Source of the DNA: Nannocystaceae bacterium ST9
Lineage (GTDB): Bacteria; Myxococcota_A; Polyangia; Nannocystales; Nannocystaceae
Assembly: GCA_048320885.1 (NCBI GenBank)
Contig: JBLWFJ010000001.1
Coordinates: forward strand, 5,761,697-5,825,696
Length of the DNA: 64,000 bases
Direction of reading: 5' to 3'
In this document: piece by piece, positions 49,918-59,643 of the stretch
How the letters are laid out: the number at the start of each line of letters is the position of its first letter
How positions within the stretch are numbered: position 1 is the first letter of the stretch
Position numbers and translations under genes: made by a program
Notes under the pieces: model-generated
The model's input: the letters and a program-made list of their open reading frames with translations, nothing else
The model's database searches: none
What the model was told of the DNA's origin: nothing

Positions 49918-51840
49918 TCAGCCCATGCGCTGCTGGAAGTAGAGCTCCTCGATCGCCTTGACCTTGTCGGCCTCGCCGGCGTGCTTGTCCGAGCGAATCG
50001 CTACCAGTTTGGGGTCGCGCAGCTTGAGATCGCCGGTCTCGTTGTCCTTGACGATGCCCTCGAAGCGGACGGTCACGACGATGTGCGGCCGCAGCTCGAC
50101 GCCGGGCCGCACGCCCGACGAGCTCTGGCGAGTGGTCCGCTTCCCGGTCATCAGGCCGTTGCGCATGATCTCGGCCTGCAGCTCGCGGTCGCGGATCTGA
50201 TCGACGCCGGCGACGTCGCCGACGTCGAGGAAGCCGCCGTCGTTGGTCCGGGCCCCGATCGCGAAGCTGCCGAACATTCCGGCCTTGGCCTTGCTGGTCA
50301 CCGAGAACACGCCCTCGATCAGCACCAGATCCAGCGTGATCTCGGGCTTGCGCTTGAGCCAGTCGGGGTCGCGGCGGGCCAGCGCGTACACGCCGTCGAG
50401 ATCCTTGGTGATGATCCCTTCGTAGCCCTGGCTGCGGAAGTGCTGGTAGAGCCGATTGACGTCGTTCTTGTCCTTGGCCAGCTGGCCCTCGGCGATCGTC
50501 AGCGGGATCGGGTTGGGGAAGTTGCTGACCGGGCCGAGGAACTGCTGGAGCAGCTTGCGGCGCTCGTGCAGGGGCAGCTGGGTCAGGTCGCGGCCGTTGA
50601 GGTAGACGAGATCGAAGGCGGCGTACTTGAGGTTGACCGGGCGCTGGACGACCTCGCCCGACAAGCTGGCGTAGACCTCGTAGACGGTCGCCGGGCGGGC
50701 GCCGTCGAGATCGAACACCGAGCCGAACAGCTCGCCGTCGATGATGCAGTCGCGGCAGGGGAAGTTGGCGATCGTCTGACGCATGCCGGTGATCTGCTCG
50801 AGCCAGTCCTTGCGTCCGCGCGTGTAGGCGGCGCAGAGCATCGAGCCGCTCGCGTCGGTCGACTTGTGCAGCATCAGGCGGATGCCGTCGTACTTGCGCT
50901 CGACCCAGCAGGGGTACTTCTTGACCGTGTCGGTCGAGCCGCTGGCCAGCGCGGGCTTGACCGCGACGAGCGGCTGGAGCTGGACCTCGCGCAGACCGTC
51001 GGGGCCCTTGGCCGCGAGCGTCTTGGCGACCGAGAAGGGATCCGACAGGGCGATCGCGTGCTGGACCGCCTCGGGCTCGGCCCCGTAGTACTGGCCGAGC
51101 GCGCGAGCGATCACGGCGCCCTCGTATTCGAACCCGAAGTCGGCCTTGCCGAGGATCAGCCGGGCCATGAAGTAGGCCTCGATCTTGCCCATCCGCTCGA
51201 GCAGCGAGCGGAGCAGATCGAACTTGAGCGAGCGGACGGCGTCGGGCAGGAACTCGAGCGTCAGCATGACCTCGCCGGCGGTCAGCGGCGGATCGCTCTT
51301 GAGCTGCTTGCGCGACTCGGCGAACAGCACACCCGGATCGCCGACCCGCGACAGGCGATCGAGCATGTCGCGGTAGCTGACCATCGTGACCGACATCAGC
51401 AGACGCAGCAGGCTGTCGCGCTTGAACGTGCTGGTCCGACCGAGGAACACGTCGCCGACCAGACAGCCGATCTTCTGGACCGCCGAGAGCCCGGTGTCCT
51501 TGTCGAGGAAGCGCTGGACCAGCTCGGCCCGACCGGCCGTGTCGGGCGGCGGGTCGCCGACGATCCCGAACAAGCTCGCGGCCTTCTCGGGGTGCATGCG
51601 CATCAGCGGCATGAACAGCCCGCGGCACAGCGAGTGAAAGGGGATGGTCGCCAGCTCCGAGAGCGAGCGCCCGGCCTGCGTGAGCTGATCGGTCACGAAC
51701 TGCACGTGCAGCGGCAGGCCGAGCACCTCGTCCATGTACTCGTAGCTGGGCCGGTGACTGCCGATCTGCCCGGTCAGCAGCTCGAGGCTCTCGCCCGAGT
51801 GGAACCACTTGCGGATGGTCGCGTCGTCGACGATGTGCAT
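49918..51840 (-). CDS. ATP-dependent DNA ligase (Lig1/LigB type, with an N-terminal DNA-binding domain).
   Basis: Adenylation motif I VERKYDGIRLMLHK, then LCAAYTRGRKDW...DGELF..., EGIITKDLDGVYALARRD...WLKRKPE, and an OB domain. Confidence 0.85.
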   Translation of the reverse strand: MHIVDDATIRKWFHSGESLELLTGQIGSHRPSYEYMDEVLGLPLHVQFVTDQLTQAGRSLSELATIPFHSLCRGLFMPLMRMHPEKAASLFGIVGDPPPDTAGRAELVQRFLDKDTGLSAVQKIGCLVGDVFLGRTSTFKRDSLLRLLMSVTMVSYRDMLDRLSRVGDPGVLFAESRKQLKSDPPLTAGEVMLTLEFLPDAVRSLKFDLLRSLLERMGKIEAYFMARLILGKADFGFEYEGAVIARALGQYYGAEPEAVQHAIALSDPFSVAKTLAAKGPDGLREVQLQPLVAVKPALASGSTDTVKKYPCWVERKYDGIRLMLHKSTDASGSMLCAAYTRGRKDWLEQITGMRQTIANFPCRDCIIDGELFGSVFDLDGARPATVYEVYASLSGEVVQRPVNLKYAAFDLVYLNGRDLTQLPLHERRKLLQQFLGPVSNFPNPIPLTIAEGQLAKDKNDVNRLYQHFRSQGYEGIITKDLDGVYALARRDPDWLKRKPEITLDLVLIEGVFSVTSKAKAGMFGSFAIGARTNDGGFLDVGDVAGVDQIRDRELQAEIMRNGLMTGKRTTRQSSSGVRPGVELRPHIVVTVRFEGIVKDNETGDLKLRDPKLVAIRSDKHAGEADKVKAIEELYFQQRMG

Positions 51841-51896: not shown

Positions 51897-52361
51897 TTGA
51901 ACCTGGTCGACGAACTCCACGCGATCGCGGCGGCCCTGCGCGGTGCAGGGGTCGAATACGCCATCTGTGGGGGCCTGGCGGTGACGATCCACGGCGCCAC
52001 CCGGACGACCAAGGACATCGACTTGCTCGTCGAGCCTCGTGACGTCGCACGCGTGCTCGAGCTGCTGCGCCCGCTCGGCTACGTGTTCGCGGCGCTGCCG
52101 ATGACCTTCGACGCCGGGACCCCGAGCGAGCGGCATGTGCAGCGGGTCAGCAAGCTCGAGGGCGATCAGCACGTGTGCGTGGATCTGCTGCTCGCCGACG
52201 CTGCGTTCGCGGGCCTGCTCGCCGACAAGGTCGAGGTCGCGCTGCCCGAAGGTCCGTTGGTCGTCGTCTCGTTGCTCGGGCTGACCACGATGAAGCGACT
52301 GGCTGGTCGACCTCAGGACATCGCGGATCTCCAGCGGCTGGAGGTGCCCGATGCCGACTGA
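51897..52361 (+). CDS. Minimal nucleotidyltransferase-fold (MNT-like) protein, paralog B.
   Basis: YAICGGLAVTIHGATRTTKDIDLLV and C-terminal LTTMKRLAGRPQDIADLQRL, matching paralog A at 25551..26054. Confidence 0.6.
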   Translation: MNLVDELHAIAAALRGAGVEYAICGGLAVTIHGATRTTKDIDLLVEPRDVARVLELLRPLGYVFAALPMTFDAGTPSERHVQRVSKLEGDQHVCVDLLLADAAFAGLLADKVEVALPEGPLVVVSLLGLTTMKRLAGRPQDIADLQRLEVPDAD

Positions 52362-52566
52362 TCTCTCGCCGGATGCCGTCGCGCGCCGGCTCGCTCGACT
52401 GCGCGAGCTCTACGTGCCCGAAGATCGAGCCAGCGCGACGGCCCGACTGGCCGCCGAGCGCCCGTTTCGACGCGAGAGCTTCGAGCAGGGCGTCGGGCGC
52501 CGGCTCGCCGAGCTGCGAGACCTGCTCGAGCTCTCGAACGTGCTGCAGCGCGCGAGCCGACGGTAA
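52351..52566 (+). CDS. Small partner protein (71 aa) overlapping the 3' end of MNT-like paralog B.
   Basis: 11-nt overlap (coupled). Its C-terminus (RRLAELRDLLELSNVLQRA) resembles the C-terminus of the 26044..26238 protein (RLKQLNDALRLV). Confidence 0.4.
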   Translation: MPTDLSPDAVARRLARLRELYVPEDRASATARLAAERPFRRESFEQGVGRRLAELRDLLELSNVLQRASRR

Positions 52567-52572
52567 CTCAGC

Positions 52573-53022
52573 TCAATCGAGCGGCTTGGTCATCAGCAGG
52601 CGCGGCACGGCCTTGAACCCCTCGCGCTCGTAGAGCCGGCGGGCGCCCTCGTTCTCGTGGCGCACGACCAGGTGCAGGGCACCGACCCCGGCCGCGCGCG
52701 CGTGCGAGTCGGCGGCCTGCAAGAGCCGCTCGCCCAGGCCGCGCCCGCGGGCCTCGGGCACGACCCAGAGCTCGGTCACGAACGCATCGCGGCCGCCCCA
52801 CTCGAGGTCGAACCCGAAGGTCAGGACCGCGTAGCCGTGCAGCGTCGCGGCGTCGATCGCGACCACGACCAGTCCGAGCGACTCGTCGGCGAGCAGGCGT
52901 CGCAGCGCTCGCTCGATCCGCTCGGGCTGCCAGGGGATCCGCTCGCCCTCGTTGAAGGGCTGCATCTGCGCGAGCAGGGCGGGGACGTCGGACTCGGTGG
53001 CGCGGCGCAGCTCGAGCGCCAT
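52573..53022 (-). CDS. GNAT family N-acetyltransferase.
   Basis: ELWVVPEARGRGLGERLL...RRLYEREGF matches GNAT motifs A and B. Its ATG overlaps the upstream ATPase stop by 1 nt. Confidence 0.8.
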   Translation of the reverse strand: MALELRRATESDVPALLAQMQPFNEGERIPWQPERIERALRRLLADESLGLVVVAIDAATLHGYAVLTFGFDLEWGGRDAFVTELWVVPEARGRGLGERLLQAADSHARAAGVGALHLVVRHENEGARRLYEREGFKAVPRLLMTKPLD

Positions 53023-54128
53023 CACGCCATCTCGATGATGGCCTTGTCCTCGGGCTGATCCGGCGACACCACCAATTCGCCAGTCCCGTCCTTCTGCACG
53101 ACCTTGATCGGGTGCTGGAAGATCGGCGCCGACACGCACTTGACCGCGCGGATGACCACGATCTTCTCGCGGTACTTGCCGCCCCACTCGGCGGCGTGCT
53201 CCTTGCTGCCCAGGCTCATCTCTTCGATCAGGAACACGGCGTCGGCGGTGTGCTGCATGGCTTCGCCGCCGACCGGATCGCCGGTGTCCTTGATCTGCCC
53301 GACGCACAGGCAGGTCACGCCCTGCTCGTGGTTGTAGGTCTTGAGCGTGCTCAGGTGGTCGGCGGTCTTGGCCCGGCTCGGGTCGAGCATGTTGAGCGAG
53401 TCGATGACCACGAACTTGATGCCGGCCTTCTCGACCAGGTAGCGGTACTTGGCGATGAAGTCGTCCCAGGTCGTGCCGCGGTGGTACTGCGACTCGATCA
53501 CCCACATGTTCTCGAGCGCCTTGGTCTTGAAGTCCTTCTCCTTCAAGCCGGTCGCGGCCATGCCGATCTTGGTCATGCGCGAGCCGAGGTCGTCGCGGCC
53601 GGAGCCGGCCTTGTCGTGGAAGCCCTCTTCGGCGACGACGAACGCAACCTTCATGCCGCTGGCGGCGACGCGGGCGAGCGTGGCCAAGGTGGTGCGGGTC
53701 TTGCCTTTGCCGGGCGGGCCGACCAGCGCGATCGTGCAGCCCTTGGGCAGACCGCCGAGCGCGTGCTTGCCGTCTTCGGTCAGGCACAGGTAGTCGAGCA
53801 CGGTGCCGGTCGGCAGCGGCTCTTGTCGACGGATCAGATCGTCGAAGGTCGCCGGCCGGATGATGTCGGCGTCGAGGCCCGCGTCTTCGTCCTTCTCGAG
53901 CTTGTTCTGGAAGGGCGTGGCCGAGGGGTCGAACTGCGGGGCCATGCCCTGGCCGCCCATCATCTGCCCCATCATCTGCATCATCTGCATCATCATGGGG
54001 TTCATGCCGGGCATCATGCCCTGCTGCGGCATCATGCCGGGCATCATGCCGGGCATCATCCCCGGCATCATCATGCCAGGCTGCATCATTCCGGGGTTCT
54101 GCGGCGGGTTCTGATCGTCGTTGGCCAT
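53022..54128 (-). CDS. KaiC/RecA-superfamily single-domain ATPase with an N-terminal Met/Pro/Gly/Gln-rich low-complexity segment.
   Basis: Walker A GPPGKGKT, Walker B VVIDSL, then a KaiC-like core. The N-terminus is MANDDQNPPQNPGMMQPGMMMPGMMPGMMPGMMPQQGMMPGMNPMMMQMMQMMGQMMGGQGM. Confidence 0.75.
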   Translation of the reverse strand: MANDDQNPPQNPGMMQPGMMMPGMMPGMMPGMMPQQGMMPGMNPMMMQMMQMMGQMMGGQGMAPQFDPSATPFQNKLEKDEDAGLDADIIRPATFDDLIRRQEPLPTGTVLDYLCLTEDGKHALGGLPKGCTIALVGPPGKGKTRTTLATLARVAASGMKVAFVVAEEGFHDKAGSGRDDLGSRMTKIGMAATGLKEKDFKTKALENMWVIESQYHRGTTWDDFIAKYRYLVEKAGIKFVVIDSLNMLDPSRAKTADHLSTLKTYNHEQGVTCLCVGQIKDTGDPVGGEAMQHTADAVFLIEEMSLGSKEHAAEWGGKYREKIVVIRAVKCVSAPIFQHPIKVVQKDGTGELVVSPDQPEDKAIIEMA

Positions 54129-54179
54129 GGTCGGGTGCCGGTCGGGCCGGGACGATATCATCGCCCGCGGCAGTCCTGC

Positions 54180-56360
54180 ATGACCCGGCTCGAAAACCCT
54201 GAAATCGCGGCGTTGTTCGCCGAGATGGCCGACCTCATGCAGATCAAGGGCGGCGACCGGCACAAGGTCATGGCCTTCCGTCGGGTCGCGCGGATCGTCG
54301 AGGCGCTGCCGCGGCCGGTCGACGAGCTGCTCGCTCGCGGCGAGCTCGACAAGGTCAAGGGCATCGGCGGCGGGACGGTCCACCGGGTCAAGCAGATGTT
54401 GCGGGCCGGCAGCTGCGACGACCTCGACGAGCTGCGCAACACCCTGCCCCCGGGGCTGCGCGAGCTGATCCAGATCAAGGGGATCGGGCCGACGACGATC
54501 CGCAACATCTACAACCGCTTGGGCATCCGCGACCTCGACGACCTCGAGCGCGCGGCCAAGTCGGGGGCGATCGAGGCCATCCCGCGGATGGGCAGCTACG
54601 TGGCCCAGAAGATCCTGTCGGGCATCGAGGCCTATCGAGCGCGGCGCGGCAAGGTCCCGCTGATCGAGGCCCAGCGGGTCGGTCGGCGGATCGTCGCGGC
54701 GCTCGCCCAACTCCGCCAGGTCCAGCGGATCGAGCAGGCCGGCAGCGTGCGGCGAGGCAAGGCGGCGATCGGCGACCTCGACATTCTGGTCGCGTCGACC
54801 GATCCGGGCCCGATCGCGGCCCGCTTTCAGACTCTGCCCGACGTCGCGGCGATCCTGCTCGAGGGCGACACGCGCTGCTCGGTCCGCCTGCGCAACGGGC
54901 TGCAGGCCGATCTTCGCGTGTTGCCGCCGCAGAGCTTCGGCGCCGGGCTGCACTACTTCACCGGGTCGAAGCTGCACAACGTCGAGATCCGCAAGCGCGC
55001 CGGTCGGATGGGGCTCAAGGTCGGGGACAAGGGCGTGTTCAAGCGGACCGGCGACGCGGCCAACGAGTCGCTGCCCGAGAACCTGATCGATCCTTGCCCG
55101 GAGGAGATCGACGTGTTTCGCCATGTCGGCCTGCCGTGGATCCCACCCGAGCTGCGCGAGAACTTCGGCGAGATCGAGGCGGCCGAGCGCGGTCGCCTGC
55201 CGCAGCTGATCACGCAGGCCGAGCTGCGCGGCGACCTGCACATGCACACGACCGACAGCGACGGCTCGGGCAGCCTGCGGGCGATGGCCGAGCGGGCGCG
55301 CGAGCTCGGCCACGAGTACATCGCGATCACCGATCACTCGCAGGCCATGCGGATCGCCGGCGGGCTCGACGAGGCCCGGCTGATCGATCAGCTCGCGCGC
55401 GTGCGGGCGTTCGCGGCCGGGTTCGAGGGCATGCGGGTGTTGGCCGGGATCGAGGTCGACATCCTGGCCGACGGCAGCCTCGATCTCGATCCGGCCTTGC
55501 TCGCCCAGCTCGACTTCGTGGTCGGCTCGGTCCACCGCTGGACCGACATGCGCGAGGACGCGATGACCGAGCGGGTGGTCCGGGCGATCCGCTCGGGCGT
55601 GGTCGACTGCATCGGGCATCCGACCGGGCGGCGCCCGGGCAAGCGCGATCCTTTTGCGATCGACATGGAGCGGGTGCTGGCGGCCGCGCGCGAGTTCGAC
55701 GTGGCGCTCGAGTGCAACGGCGGGCCCAACCGCATGGACCTCGGCGACGTCGACTGCCACAAGTGCCGCGAGCGCGGGGTGGCGGTCGCGATCAACACCG
55801 ACGCGCACGCGCCCGAGCACCTCGGTCGACACGAGTTCGGGCTGGCGATGGCCCGGCGCGGCTGGCTGGAGCGCGGCCACGTGCTCAACGCGATGCCCTG
55901 GGAGCGGATCGCCGAGCGTCGGAGCAAGCGGTTGCGCGATCACGGCGAGGCCGAGTGGGGGACCAATCCCGTGCAGGTCCAGGTCCCGCTCGGAGTCGTG
56001 CTCGAGCCCGAGTCGGACGAGCCGCGCACCCGCGAGTCCGGCGAGGCGCATGCCTGGGGCGAGCTCGACGACGAGCCGTCGGCGTCGGTCGAGGCGACGG
56101 TCGAGATCGCGGAGCCGAGCGAGCCCGCGGCGCCCGAGCCCGAGCCACCGCCGATCGATCTCGACTCGGTCGAGGTGCTGAGCGAGCGACTGCGACTCGG
56201 GGTCGAGGCGATCGACGACGCGCTGACCGAGCGACTGACCGAGTGGGTGACCCGCGGCGGCGAGGACCCCGAGCTGGCGGCGGCGCTCGGGCGACTGTCC
56301 GAGAACCCGCTGCAGGCCGGCTTCGATCTGCTGCTGACGATCTGGAACCGCGGCGGCTGA
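54180..56360 (+). CDS. polX: DNA polymerase X family protein with a C-terminal PHP phosphoesterase domain.
   Basis: HhH (GIGGGTV, GIGPTT), the Pol-beta-like nucleotidyltransferase GDLDILV, then PHP motifs LHMHTTDSDG, HSQAM, DTDAH. Confidence 0.9.
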   Translation: MTRLENPEIAALFAEMADLMQIKGGDRHKVMAFRRVARIVEALPRPVDELLARGELDKVKGIGGGTVHRVKQMLRAGSCDDLDELRNTLPPGLRELIQIKGIGPTTIRNIYNRLGIRDLDDLERAAKSGAIEAIPRMGSYVAQKILSGIEAYRARRGKVPLIEAQRVGRRIVAALAQLRQVQRIEQAGSVRRGKAAIGDLDILVASTDPGPIAARFQTLPDVAAILLEGDTRCSVRLRNGLQADLRVLPPQSFGAGLHYFTGSKLHNVEIRKRAGRMGLKVGDKGVFKRTGDAANESLPENLIDPCPEEIDVFRHVGLPWIPPELRENFGEIEAAERGRLPQLITQAELRGDLHMHTTDSDGSGSLRAMAERARELGHEYIAITDHSQAMRIAGGLDEARLIDQLARVRAFAAGFEGMRVLAGIEVDILADGSLDLDPALLAQLDFVVGSVHRWTDMREDAMTERVVRAIRSGVVDCIGHPTGRRPGKRDPFAIDMERVLAAAREFDVALECNGGPNRMDLGDVDCHKCRERGVAVAINTDAHAPEHLGRHEFGLAMARRGWLERGHVLNAMPWERIAERRSKRLRDHGEAEWGTNPVQVQVPLGVVLEPESDEPRTRESGEAHAWGELDDEPSASVEATVEIAEPSEPAAPEPEPPPIDLDSVEVLSERLRLGVEAIDDALTERLTEWVTRGGEDPELAAALGRLSENPLQAGFDLLLTIWNRGG

Positions 56361-56376: not shown

Positions 56377-58701
56377 TCAGATCGTCACGCCCATCGACTT
56401 GCACTGCTTGCGCAAGGGCGGCTTGCGGACCCCGGCGACCTTGTCGAGCGCGCTCTTGGCCTTGCCGGCGTCGCCGAGCTTGCACGCGGCGAGCAGCATG
56501 AGCTCGGCGGTCTTGGGCTTGGCGCCCTTCTTGTAGCTGGCGGCCGCGAGCTTGTAGGCCTCGCCGGCCTTGCCCTTGTCGTAGGCCGACTTGGCGGCGT
56601 CGTAGAGCTGCTTGGCGTCGCGGTTGTCGACGACGGCGGGCTCGGGCTTGCTCGCGACCGGCTCGGGCTTGGGTTCCGGCTTGGGCTTGGGCTTGGTCGC
56701 CGTCGGCGTGGGCTCGGGCGCGGGCGCGGGCTTGCTCGACTTGGGCTTGCCCGACTTGGGCTTGCTCGTGGACCCGGGCTCGGGGCCGGGCTCGGGCTCG
56801 CTGGGTGGGGCTTCGACCTCGGGTTCGCCGGAATCGGGCGAGGGCGTGGGATCGGCCTGCGCGAGCACGTCTGGGCCCGCGATGGGTTCGACGGGTTTGG
56901 GCTCGACGGGCTCGCTCGGCGGGTCGTCGTTGGCGGCGACCTCGTCGCTGCTCGAGTCGTCGGGGGGCAGCAGCGCGACCAGCAGCGAGGCCGCGATTGC
57001 GAAGAGCACGAAGCCGATCACCAGCTTGCGACGGCCACCGGTGTTGGCGGCCGGGGCCGGCTCGTCGTCCGGCACCTCCATGATCAGAGTCTTGGTCGGC
57101 GGCGGGTGGTGGGTCTTCGCGACCAGCTCGTCGGCCATGCCGTCGATCAGCGCACCGGTGTCTTGCGGGCCGATCGGACGAGGTGCGCCCTCGGGCCGCG
57201 CGAGCACGGGCAGAGGTACGACCTTGCCGGCGTCGGGCGAGGGGGCGGGCGCACGCGCGGGAGGCATCGGCGAGCGGCCGGGCCTGGGCAGCGCCGCGGG
57301 TCCGCGCGGGTTGGTGTCTTCGCGGATCTCGGTGCTCGGCTGGGTGGCCTCGGGTGTCGGCGAGGGCTCGTGCAATCGGACGATCACCGCCGGCGGTTCG
57401 TAGGGAACGCCGAGGCGCGGTCGATCGTCGATCACGGATCGCGGCGCCGGCGGAGCCATCGGATTCGCGGGCTTGCTCGACATGCTTCCGTCCACCGAGG
57501 TGGAAGTGTCTTGCGAAGGTCCGCTCGATTCATGCGATCGCGACTCCGAAGGTGCGCTCGAATCGAACGTCGGGGGGATCGCCGAATCCACCGATGTCGG
57601 CCGCTCGATGATCACCGGCTCGAGGGTCGCGGGCGGCTCGACGTGCGATTCGGTGATTGTCGCTACGATCGCGTCGCGGGGCTCGGCCGCACGCGGCGGC
57701 GGGCTCTGGCGATCGTCGATTTCCTCGGGCACCGCCCCCTGCGCGGCGAGGGTCGCGAGGCTGGGAAAGGGTGCAGTGACGAGATTGTCGATGTCGTCGG
57801 ACTTGGACTTGCCGGCGAGCGGCTTAGGCCCGACGACCGAATCGAGCTTTGGCCCGGTGGGCTTGGGCCCGACGACCGAATCGAGCTTTGGCTCGGTGGG
57901 CTTGGGCCCGACGACCGAATCGAGCTTTGGCCCGGTGGGCTTGGGCCCGACGACCGAATCGAGCTTGGGCTCGGGCTTGGCGTCCGCGAGCGCCATCGCG
58001 ATCGGACCGGGCGTCTCGGTGCGCTCGACGGGGGCGCTCGCCTCTCGCTCGCGCGCGGCCCGAAGCACCTCGGCCGGATCGATCAACCCGACCGAGAGCT
58101 CGAACTCCAAGTCGGGCGAGAGCGCGATGGCCTTGGCGAGGTCCGAGCCGGCCGCGGGCTTGGGCCCGGACGCCTTGCGCTTGTTCGCGACCGGCTTGCC
58201 CTCGATGATCTTGGATTCGGGCCGCGACTCGACGAGCTTGGTCTCGACGGGCTTGGTCTCGACGGGCTTGGTCTCGACGGGCTTGGGCGCCGGGCCGGAC
58301 ACGGTCTCGATCCGTGACTGAGGTAGCGCACCGATCGGAGCACCGGTGGTCGCGAGCTTGGGCGGCGCCGCGAGCTTGGGCGCACCGAGCTTCGGCGGCG
58401 GTGGGACGGCGAGCTTCGGAGGCGCCGGCACGGCGAGCTTGGTCGCGGGGGCGCCCGGTAGCACCGGCACGGCGCCCGAGGGAGCTCGCGCGCCGAGGGC
58501 CGGCACGTCGGCGAAGAGATCGTCGCTGCCGAACACGTCGACGGCCGGCATCCCGGCGATGGTCAGCGGTCGCGGTCCATCCGAAGAGAAGGGCGGCAGC
58601 GTCGGCGGCTCGCCGTGCAGCGGCTTGGGAGCTCCCGTCGCGCTGGACTCGTCGCGCCGGGGGGAGTCGCTCGAGGATGCGTGGTCGTCGGGCATCGCCA
58701 C
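56377..58701 (-). CDS. Pro/Lys-rich single-pass membrane protein with internal tandem repeats, hypothetical.
   Basis: 774-aa ORF with a TM (LVIGFVLFAIAASLLVALL), PKLDSVVGPKPTG ×4 and KPVETKPVETKPVE repeats. GC3 is good, but the low complexity makes the call tentative. Confidence 0.5.
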   Translation of the reverse strand: MAMPDDHASSSDSPRRDESSATGAPKPLHGEPPTLPPFSSDGPRPLTIAGMPAVDVFGSDDLFADVPALGARAPSGAVPVLPGAPATKLAVPAPPKLAVPPPPKLGAPKLAAPPKLATTGAPIGALPQSRIETVSGPAPKPVETKPVETKPVETKLVESRPESKIIEGKPVANKRKASGPKPAAGSDLAKAIALSPDLEFELSVGLIDPAEVLRAAREREASAPVERTETPGPIAMALADAKPEPKLDSVVGPKPTGPKLDSVVGPKPTEPKLDSVVGPKPTGPKLDSVVGPKPLAGKSKSDDIDNLVTAPFPSLATLAAQGAVPEEIDDRQSPPPRAAEPRDAIVATITESHVEPPATLEPVIIERPTSVDSAIPPTFDSSAPSESRSHESSGPSQDTSTSVDGSMSSKPANPMAPPAPRSVIDDRPRLGVPYEPPAVIVRLHEPSPTPEATQPSTEIREDTNPRGPAALPRPGRSPMPPARAPAPSPDAGKVVPLPVLARPEGAPRPIGPQDTGALIDGMADELVAKTHHPPPTKTLIMEVPDDEPAPAANTGGRRKLVIGFVLFAIAASLLVALLPPDDSSSDEVAANDDPPSEPVEPKPVEPIAGPDVLAQADPTPSPDSGEPEVEAPPSEPEPGPEPGSTSKPKSGKPKSSKPAPAPEPTPTATKPKPKPEPKPEPVASKPEPAVVDNRDAKQLYDAAKSAYDKGKAGEAYKLAAASYKKGAKPKTAELMLLAACKLGDAGKAKSALDKVAGVRKPPLRKQCKSMGVTI
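57821..57976 (-). repeat. 39-bp tandem repeat ×4 (ggcttgggcccgacgaccgaatcgagctttggcccggtg) encoding PKLDSVVGPKPTG.
   Basis: Read directly in the sequence. Confidence 0.85.
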
Positions 58702-58764
58702 CTACGTCGGGAAAGAGTAGCGCAAGGGCTCGACCTGCGTGGGGTGAAACGGCACATTCGAGCG

Positions 58765-59643
58765 GTGCGACTCCACCTCGTCGACGGCACCTACGAGCTG
58801 TTCCGCAGCTTCTACGGCGCACCACCCGCGAAGGCTCCCGACGGTCGGGAAGTCGGCGCGACCCGAGGCCTGCTGCGCTCGATGCTCGCGCTGCTGCGCG
58901 AACCCGAGACTACCCACGTGGCGATCGCCTTCGACCACGTGATCGAGTCGTTCCGCAACGACCTGTTCAGTGGCTACAAGACTGGCGCGGGGATCGATCC
59001 CGATCTGTGGGCCCAATTCCCACTCGTGGAGCAGGCCGCGAGCGCGCTCGGTCTGGTGGTCTGGCCGATGATCGAGTTCGAAGCCGACGACGCGCTGGCG
59101 AGCGCGGCCGCTCGCTGGGCCGACGACCCGCGCGTCGAGCAAGTGATGATCTGCTCGCCCGACAAGGACCTCGGCCAGTGCGTGCGCGGGAACAAGGTCG
59201 TGTTGGTCGATCGTCGACGCAAGGAGGTGTACGACGAGCCGCGGATCCTCGAGAAGTTTGGCGTCGGTCCGGCCTCGATCCCCGATCTGCTCGCGCTGGT
59301 CGGCGACTCGGCCGATGGCCTGCCGGGCATCCCACGCTGGGGCATGAAATCGGCCGCCGCGGTGCTGATCGAGTACGGCCAGATCGATCGCATCCCCGAC
59401 GACGCCGCGCAGTGGACCGTCAAGGTCCGCGGGGCCGCGGCGCTGGCCGAGAGTCTTCGCGAGCGGCGCGAGCAGGCGCGGCTCTACCGAACCCTAGCGA
59501 CCTTGCGCGTCGACGTGCCGCTGCCCGAGCGCGAGCTCGACGAGTTGCGCTGGCGCGGCGCCGATCGTGCGGCGCTGACCGATCTGTGTGAGGCGATCGA
59601 CGATCCCCGAGCGCTGGAACGGGTCGGGGCCTGGCGCGAGTGA
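58765..59643 (+). CDS. 5'-3' exonuclease / flap endonuclease (Pol I N-terminal domain family, Xni/ExoIX-like).
   Basis: N-terminal ...LHLVDGTYELFRSFYG..., then DKDLGQC..., and a C-terminal H3TH-like region. GTG start at 58765. Confidence 0.8.
   Translation: MRLHLVDGTYELFRSFYGAPPAKAPDGREVGATRGLLRSMLALLREPETTHVAIAFDHVIESFRNDLFSGYKTGAGIDPDLWAQFPLVEQAASALGLVVWPMIEFEADDALASAAARWADDPRVEQVMICSPDKDLGQCVRGNKVVLVDRRRKEVYDEPRILEKFGVGPASIPDLLALVGDSADGLPGIPRWGMKSAAAVLIEYGQIDRIPDDAAQWTVKVRGAAALAESLRERREQARLYRTLATLRVDVPLPERELDELRWRGADRAALTDLCEAIDDPRALERVGAWRE

Follow-up and report, generated by a model that had tools for sequence, protein, structure and literature searches.

Introduction

The repair-related Ku-LigD and TIGR04120 modules place the gene of an ATP-dependent DNA ligase beside that of a dedicated accessory protein. 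LigD-type ligases carry polymerase and phosphoesterase domains, and to our knowledge none of these modules employs a RecA-fold ATPase as the accessory protein. For the bacterial main-chain ATP-dependent ligases of the LigB type, we know of no well-established partner or pathway. Among the RecA-fold ATPases, KaiC is composed of two tandem ATPase domains, and the archaeal RadA paralogues Sso2452/aRadC (PDB 2w0m) and PH0284 (PDB 2dr3) are KaiC-like proteins with a single domain, for which we are aware of no reported pairing with a ligase. Sso2452, an ATPase associated with DNA repair, is a tight binder of ssDNA and inhibits the formation of D-loops (PMC8708640).

A separate line of work concerns low-complexity domains and surfaces enriched in Met. 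Such domains in Pbp1 and TDP-43 are redox-sensitive self-association modules, and a compositionally similar segment of Pab1 has been proposed to act in the same manner (PMC8394241). In TDP-43, a Met-rich helix lies within a disordered tract (PMC10450430), and oxidation of Met sharply raises the hydrophilicity and the cloud point of Met-containing elastin-like polypeptides (PMC8125372). STI1 domains contain Met-rich grooves along with placeholder sequences (PMC13083928), and PARP1 condensates are reported to enhance DNA ligation (PMC11624282). The locus described here, from Nannocystaceae bacterium ST9, joins a Met-rich N-terminal head to a KaiC-type ATPase whose relatives are encoded next to a DNA ligase. 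Searches for a literature description, a curated family or a solved structure of this Met-headed ATPase family yielded none, and no description of a KaiC-like/ligase operon or of bacterial Met-rich domains was found in the literature searched.

Results

A single-domain KaiC-type ATPase with complete catalytic motifs

The window, i.e. the whole analysed stretch of 64,000 nucleotides, encodes on its minus strand a Met-headed single-domain KaiC/RecA-fold ATPase of 368 amino acids plus stop (CDS 53022..54128), with the ORF spanning 53025..54128, a TGA stop at 53022-53024 and a translation that begins MANDDQNPPQNPGMMQPGMMMPGMMPGMMPGMMPQQGMMPGMNPMMMQMMQMMGQMMGGQGMAPQFDPSATPF. The first-pass annotation had recognized it as a KaiC/RecA-like ATPase, and this assignment is borne out by the match of residues 117-306 to Pfam KaiC PF06745 (E 4e-13, 49.7 bits against a cut-off of 26.6) and by the confidently predicted RecA-like alpha/beta core, which Foldseek aligns to the KaiC CI domain with a TM score of 0.8. 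The Walker A motif GPPGKGKT, read from the sequence (residues 137-144; 53697..53720, minus strand), is invariant in family alignments. The Walker B motif FVVID (residues 239-243; 53400..53414, minus strand) contains D243, which is invariant with the distant set included. Both residues of the Glu167-Glu168 pair following strand 2 (53625..53630, minus strand) are invariant in the family, with E167 conserved even in the distant set, and by their position they would correspond to the catalytic glutamate position of KaiC-type ATPases. The protein ends about 60 residues past the core without extra domains. Domain and motif matches thus show a single-domain KaiC-type RecA-fold ATPase with complete catalytic motifs, a member of a compact bacterial family with strong conservation.

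The relationship to known classes within this fold is of a general nature. The Pfam KaiC domain above threshold, the Walker A and B motifs and a Glu-Glu pair at the presumed catalytic position are shared with KaiC (CI), but KaiC has two tandem ATPase domains as compared to one here, where the neighbours are DNA-repair genes; no kaiA or kaiB was present in the gene tables of the examined loci or among the window ORFs at 48-60 kb. Scores against equivalog models all fall below threshold: 16.5 bits against a cut-off of 408 for KaiC (NF006799), 30.2 against 172.4 for RadB (TIGR02237), 20.8 against 403 for RadA/Sms (TIGR00416), whose N-terminal zinc finger and C-terminal Lon-like domain the ATPase lacks, and 24.4 against 325.3 for RecA (TIGR02012), with the last match covering the Walker A region only. 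A sequence search of the PDB returned only RecA matches around Walker A and 2w0m, hence the only non-RecA chain matched is that of Sso2452; identity to Sso2452 and PH0284 is only 21-25%, and the family described here is bacterial. PHROG matches of the ATPase to primase/helicase (1e-10) and UvsX-like proteins (9e-7), and of a distant relative to Sak4-like proteins (9e-4), are all weak and do not amount to membership. In contrast to phage T7 gp4-type proteins, the ATPase has no primase or zinc-finger domain. Some distant relatives end in acidic-aromatic tails (YVDF, EFDF), which are also a feature of T7 gp4 and gp2.5. Scans of IMG/VR viral contigs did not detect the main ATPase family, and PADLOC models of anti-phage defence gave no match for the ATPase, the ligase or the adjacent GNAT protein.

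The Met-rich head is genuine and contains conserved elements

The N-terminus rich in Met, Pro, Gly and Gln, to which the first-pass annotation had drawn attention, proved to be both real and unusual, with 23 Met in the 49 positions of residues 12-60. Across homologues the heads are 44-175 amino acids long and contain approximately 24% M, 15% P, 15% G and 11% Q, with 0% Cys and 0.1% His, and their Met content of 23.7% contrasts with 2.3% in the ATPase core. When 1.29 Mb of related loci and the window were translated in six frames, 91 stretches of 30 residues containing 8 or more Met were obtained, 88 of which lie inside the ATPase family. This near-complete confinement indicates that the composition is specific to the protein rather than a property of the genomic background.

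Three parts can be distinguished within the head. The low-complexity tract of (M)MPGMM/PGMM-like repeats (residues 12-42; 54003..54095, minus strand) is predicted to be disordered (pLDDT 45-51) and varies in length among orthologues, and the DNA of the head consists of imperfect tandem repeats with units of 9, 12, 15 and 42 nt. It is followed by a conserved Met helix, NPMMMQMMQMMGQMMGG (residues 43-59; 53952..54002, minus strand), in which N43 is invariant, the motif NPM[MFL]xMMQMMQMMMGG is found in 98 of 100 heads, and residues 45-56 are predicted as helical with only moderate confidence (pLDDT about 71-75). The motif DPSATPF (residues 67-73; 53910..53930, minus strand), with invariant D67 and F73, precedes an acidic linker and conforms to D[PA]x[AST]x[PT]F in all 100 heads. 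Comparison of the helix/PF segment with close relatives gave very small counts of 1-6 synonymous versus 1-8 non-synonymous changes. The extreme N-terminus is acidic (MANDDQN) in the clade of the window, and 39 of 100 heads start with a Lys-rich tract such as MAKKKAAKKK. The orthologue of Ca. Uabimicrobium contains His in its repeat, (GHQGMMP)n, and carries a Lys-rich C-terminal tail as well. Visual inspection of the ATPase reveals neither a signal peptide nor a hydrophobic leader, and the protein is probably cytoplasmic.

A concern raised beforehand was that the head might reflect a mis-called start. The annotated ATG is backed by conservation of the N-terminal sequence MAN(D/N)DQN and of an element upstream, and the possibility that the head is junk or a mis-called start was ruled out, as it occurs in every close homologue with its motifs and N-terminus conserved. 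The upstream element, TGATATCGT (54151..54159, minus strand), lies in the 51-bp intergenic region between polX and the ATPase gene, around 27 nt upstream of the ATG, and resembles an extended -10. In the comparison of intergenic regions GATGATATCGTCCC is conserved in L001, L091 and L093, and TGTTATGGT occupies the equivalent place in L002 and L090. A scan of the locus for promoter and terminator consensus sequences found none, and the designation as a putative extended -10-like element is inferred from conservation only.

The helix and PF motif predate the Met repeats

A homologue search returned 515 matches, and the head is present in all of the best 120 of these (59-89% identity, 324-457 amino acids), which are labelled as Myxococcota, Planctomycetota and Acidobacteriota; the conservation of the Met-rich N-terminus, for which the first-pass annotation had proposed such a search, is hence upheld among them. 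A search for the clade gave only 118 matches among 1.84 billion representatives, so that it can be regarded as small and isolated. In the alignment, relatives with 25-58% identity are without Met repeats and contain a short amphipathic helix at the equivalent position, and most retain the 'PF'. This distribution shows that the Met repeats arose later than the helix and the PF motif. Four of four distant relatives examined (29-49% identity) adjoin an ATP-dependent ligase gene, two of them on phage-like contigs.

An ATP-dependent DNA ligase is the conserved genomic partner

The window encodes a Lig1-type three-domain ATP-dependent DNA ligase of 640 amino acids with the active-site motif KYDGIR (49918..51840, minus strand; PF04675, PF01068, PF04679), approximately 1.2 kb downstream of the ATPase gene. 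This distance is due to the insertion of other genes in between. The first-pass annotation had regarded the ligase as a landmark further away. The comparison of loci instead identifies it as the conserved and often translationally coupled partner, since the ligase gene lies directly downstream of the ATPase gene on the same strand in 46 of 80 species-level loci. In the 55 loci with both genes, the median gap between them is 17 nt, with 42 gaps of at most 100 nt and 12 overlaps of 4 or 1 nt, and the link persists in loci where other genes have been inserted. The 471 ligase homologues have a constant length of about 640 amino acids. Within this ligase family K315 is invariant, and an N-terminal stretch of approximately 110 amino acids shows conservation specific to the family; even the partner of a distant ATPase, with 30% identity, retains it.

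In approximately 26 loci with sufficient flanks, mostly from Planctomycetota but also from Enhygromyxa and Plesiocystis, no ligase was present within 8 kb. Two such planctomycete loci (L074 and L056) have unrelated neighbours, i.e. genes for thymidylate kinase, IMPDH, a sigma factor and Omp85. In Plesiocystis, the only genome with a non-adjacent arrangement that was checked for a ligase elsewhere, the ATPase and ligase genes lie on a single contig, separated by about 28 kb. A ligase record also exists for Enhygromyxa salina.

The ligase does not fall into the known modules. Scores against the LigD models are below threshold (117.6 against a cut-off of 227.75, and 103.8 against 373.2), as is that for TIGR04120, 'cisplatin damage response ATP-dependent DNA ligase' (80.6 against 400), and no Ku gene was found in the gene tables of the examined neighbourhoods. 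Unlike LigD-type ligases, it consists of DBD, NTase and OB domains only, and the accessory protein is a RecA-fold ATPase, which distinguishes the arrangement from both the Ku-LigD and the TIGR04120 modules. The comparison of gene order shows that the ancestral genomic partner of the ATPase family is a Lig1-type ATP-dependent DNA ligase immediately downstream, and points to the pair being an undescribed DNA-sealing repair module.

Other neighbours are restricted to sub-lineages

Directly downstream of the ATPase gene, the window encodes a GNAT acetyltransferase of 149 amino acids (52573..53022, minus strand; PF00583, E 1e-16), whose ATG at 53020-53022 overlaps the ATPase stop by one base (TGATG), just as had been noted. 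The ensuing description of the ATPase as coupled to GNAT holds for the sub-lineage of the window but not for the family: GNAT homologues were found in none of the 80 species-representative loci, and orthologues (65-67% identity) only in the nearest relatives, L091-L093. On this count GNAT was rejected as a family-wide functional partner and retained as a sub-lineage feature; judged from gene order, it is a lineage-specific insertion between the ATPase and the ligase. A cassette on the opposite strand (51897..52566, plus strand) comprises an NTase-like ORF (51897..52361; NTP_transf_5, E 1.4e-7; weak AbiEii PADLOC match, E 8e-5) overlapping a 71-aa ORF (52351..52566). It occurs in 1 of 80 loci and appears to be a second insertion, outside the conserved module.

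On the other side, the divergently transcribed polX gene 51 bp away was confirmed, with PolX, composed of Pol-beta-like domains and a PHP domain, starting at 54180 (54180..56360, plus strand; NF006375, E 5.8e-138, 461 bits against a cut-off of 426). PolX is a neighbour in 17 of 80 species-level loci, or 22 of 93 in a wider count, and only in a subset of Myxococcota. The ORF for a 5'-3' exonuclease (58615..59643, plus strand) was identified from its own sequence and from a PF02739/PF01367 gene in the matching arrangement of L090. The ATPase gene had been placed between this gene and the ligase; both are indeed present, but the exonuclease gene is nearby rather than adjacent, with a 774-aa Pro-rich ORF separating it from polX. 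The neighbourhood comparison proposed for a ligase/PolX/ATPase/FEN cluster accordingly supports the ligase as a conserved member, but PolX only in the minority of loci given above and the 5'-3' exonuclease in some genomes. Tag glycosylase, an SbcC-like gene and WGR-PARP are, like this exonuclease, repair-context neighbours in some loci. All-against-all clustering of six-frame ORFs from 81 loci, whose clusters are messy due to shadow ORFs at high GC, yielded besides ligase and PolX only a protein-kinase-like cluster (12 loci, variable position), an SbcC-like cluster (7 loci) and DUF1501 with a prepilin-type gene. The last two, from planctomycete loci, were tried as partners and taken as chance, as their position with respect to the ATPase is not fixed.

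Discussion

The explanation favoured here, to which a probability of about 0.5 is assigned, is that the ATPase is a ligase-accessory DNA-dependent ATPase with the Met head as a tether and self-association module that is possibly sensitive to oxidation. It would serve as an accessory factor for the ligase in the sealing of DNA breaks or nicks, most likely binding ssDNA or nicked DNA as an ATP-dependent oligomer, either a short filament or a ring of the kind formed by KaiC, PH0284 and T7 gp4; such DNA binding is suggested by relatives with 14-25% identity. The ATPase, which might be a clamp, an annealing factor or a helicase, may then hold or align the DNA and recruit or activate the ligase, and in Myxococcota could work with the adjacent PolX in gap filling and end cleaning. 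The helix-plus-PF segment would provide a protein-protein contact, with either the neighbouring protomer or the family-specific N-terminal region of the ligase, the latter contact being purely conjectural. The (PGMM)n tract might be a flexible, sticky, elastin-like spacer and, when displayed on an oligomer, could promote multivalent self-association, thereby concentrating the ligase at damage. As all hydrophobic positions of this tract are Met, oxidation to the sulfoxide would weaken the contacts of the head and render the assembly redox-tunable. GNAT would be a recent add-on in the lineage of the window, outside this core mechanism.

Self-association of the head and its redox tuning are proposed from composition and analogy. 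With 24% Met, the heads correspond in composition to the Met-rich low-complexity type of Pbp1 and TDP-43. Like Pbp1/ataxin-2, the conserved region of TDP-43, the Pab1 P domain and elastin-like polypeptides, the head is rich in M, P, G, Q and N; the resemblance of the Pab1 P-domain segment MPGQFMPP...NPQQMNPMGGMP is striking, and with elastin-like polypeptides it shares a Pro-Gly repeat grammar. The likeness to the eukaryotic domains is compositional only, without homology, and theirs are found on RNA-binding proteins, whereas the present one belongs to a bacterial ATPase. An extension of the same idea, tentative and rather unlikely, has the ATPase family scaffolding a DNA-repair condensate in bacteria, in which an oligomer of the ATPase would display several sticky tails, elastin-like and all-Met, that gather at DNA breaks into a dynamic hub. 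Such a hub would concentrate the Lig1-type ligase, and PolX in Myxococcota, and speed up end-joining or nick sealing, with its assembly threshold set by Met oxidation versus Msr-dependent reduction. If true, bacteria would possess an equivalent of the repair condensates of the PARP1/FUS/XRCC1 type and of the redox-sensing domains of the Pbp1 type, along with an ATP-driven ligase partner other than a Ku protein.

Other functions can be envisaged for the head. As it contains no Cys, almost no His and no sign of export, its composition speaks against classical metal sites and is compatible with redox sensing or phase separation. It could be mainly a redox sensor or sacrificial antioxidant, in which oxidation of about 25 Met would reversibly switch the ATPase and the ligase on or off under oxidative stress without any scaffolding, a role in keeping with a Met content of 24% in the absence of Cys and His, with full exposure in a predicted disordered region, with base-excision-type neighbours (PolX, Tag, 5'-3' exonuclease) and with the precedents of Pbp1 and TDP-43 (PMC8394241). 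However, the distant relatives show that its oldest conserved elements, helix and PF motif, need not be rich in Met, and the primary role of the head hence looks like that of a contact site. Genes for methionine sulfoxide reductase (msr) were also absent from the gene tables of the examined loci. Redox sensing as the main function is considered improbable, and it overlaps with the ligase-accessory explanation without excluding it. A contact of a more defined kind would be one-to-one docking by the Met helix, as a flexible hydrophobic surface for a client peptide, comparable to the 'methionine bristles' of SRP54 M, Get3 and STI1 grooves, or as a 'placeholder' plugging a groove of the ligase or of the ATPase core, in either case with the PGMM tract as a mere spacer. 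That the repeats are free to vary but the helix is almost invariant, that an ordinary amphipathic helix occupies the equivalent place in distant relatives, and that the N-terminal region of the ligase has a conserved hydrophobic segment, IPFYSLCRGLFLPL, would all be accommodated. Such docking is nevertheless doubtful, because the head is kept in genomes with a non-adjacent ligase and the Met/Pro/Gly composition of the repeats is conserved across phyla beyond the needs of a neutral spacer.

Two further proposals carry little weight. Binding of Cu(I)/Ag(I) by Met-only sites, as in the 'Mets motifs' of Ctr1, CusF and PcoC, would link metal stress to DNA repair and could draw on the dense MxM and MxxM spacing and on the His in the Ca. 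Uabimicrobium repeat. Oxidising compartments outside the cytoplasm are the typical location of Met-only Cu(I) sites, but the ATPase without an apparent leader is probably cytoplasmic, the heads have 0% Cys and 0.1% His, and no copper-homeostasis genes are among the neighbours in the examined loci. The head thus displays neither the extracytoplasmic location nor the His/Cys ligands by which Mets motifs are recognized, and metal binding is very improbable. Equally improbable is an anchor to a membrane or surface, namely the inner membrane or the nucleoid, formed by the amphipathic Met helix together with the Lys-rich N-terminus of many orthologues. The helix is largely hydrophobic, 39 of 100 heads start Lys-rich and the Uabimicrobium protein has a Lys-rich C-terminal tail too, but the clade of the window starts acidic, and the spacer between the Lys tract and the helix is very variable in length. 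Lys/Ala/Pro-rich tails are better known as DNA-binding tails, and a DNA-binding role of this kind would fit the ligase-accessory explanation.

Under the ligase-accessory explanation, a conserved RecA-fold ATPase becomes a testable partner for bacterial ATP-dependent ligases, and a repair route distinct from Ku-LigD is suggested in Myxococcota, Planctomycetota and Acidobacteriota. The head itself is among the clearest bacterial low-complexity regions under obvious selection, its length drifting while its composition and embedded helix stay near-constant across phyla, and it offers a simple system for the role of Met-rich disordered regions, so far studied in few eukaryotic RNA-binding proteins. 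A family-specific model and name for the Met-headed ATPases would be justified. At present, members are labelled only as 'AAA family ATPase', 'ATPase domain-containing protein', 'KaiC/GvpD/RAD55 family RecA-like ATPase' or 'RAD55 family ATPase'.

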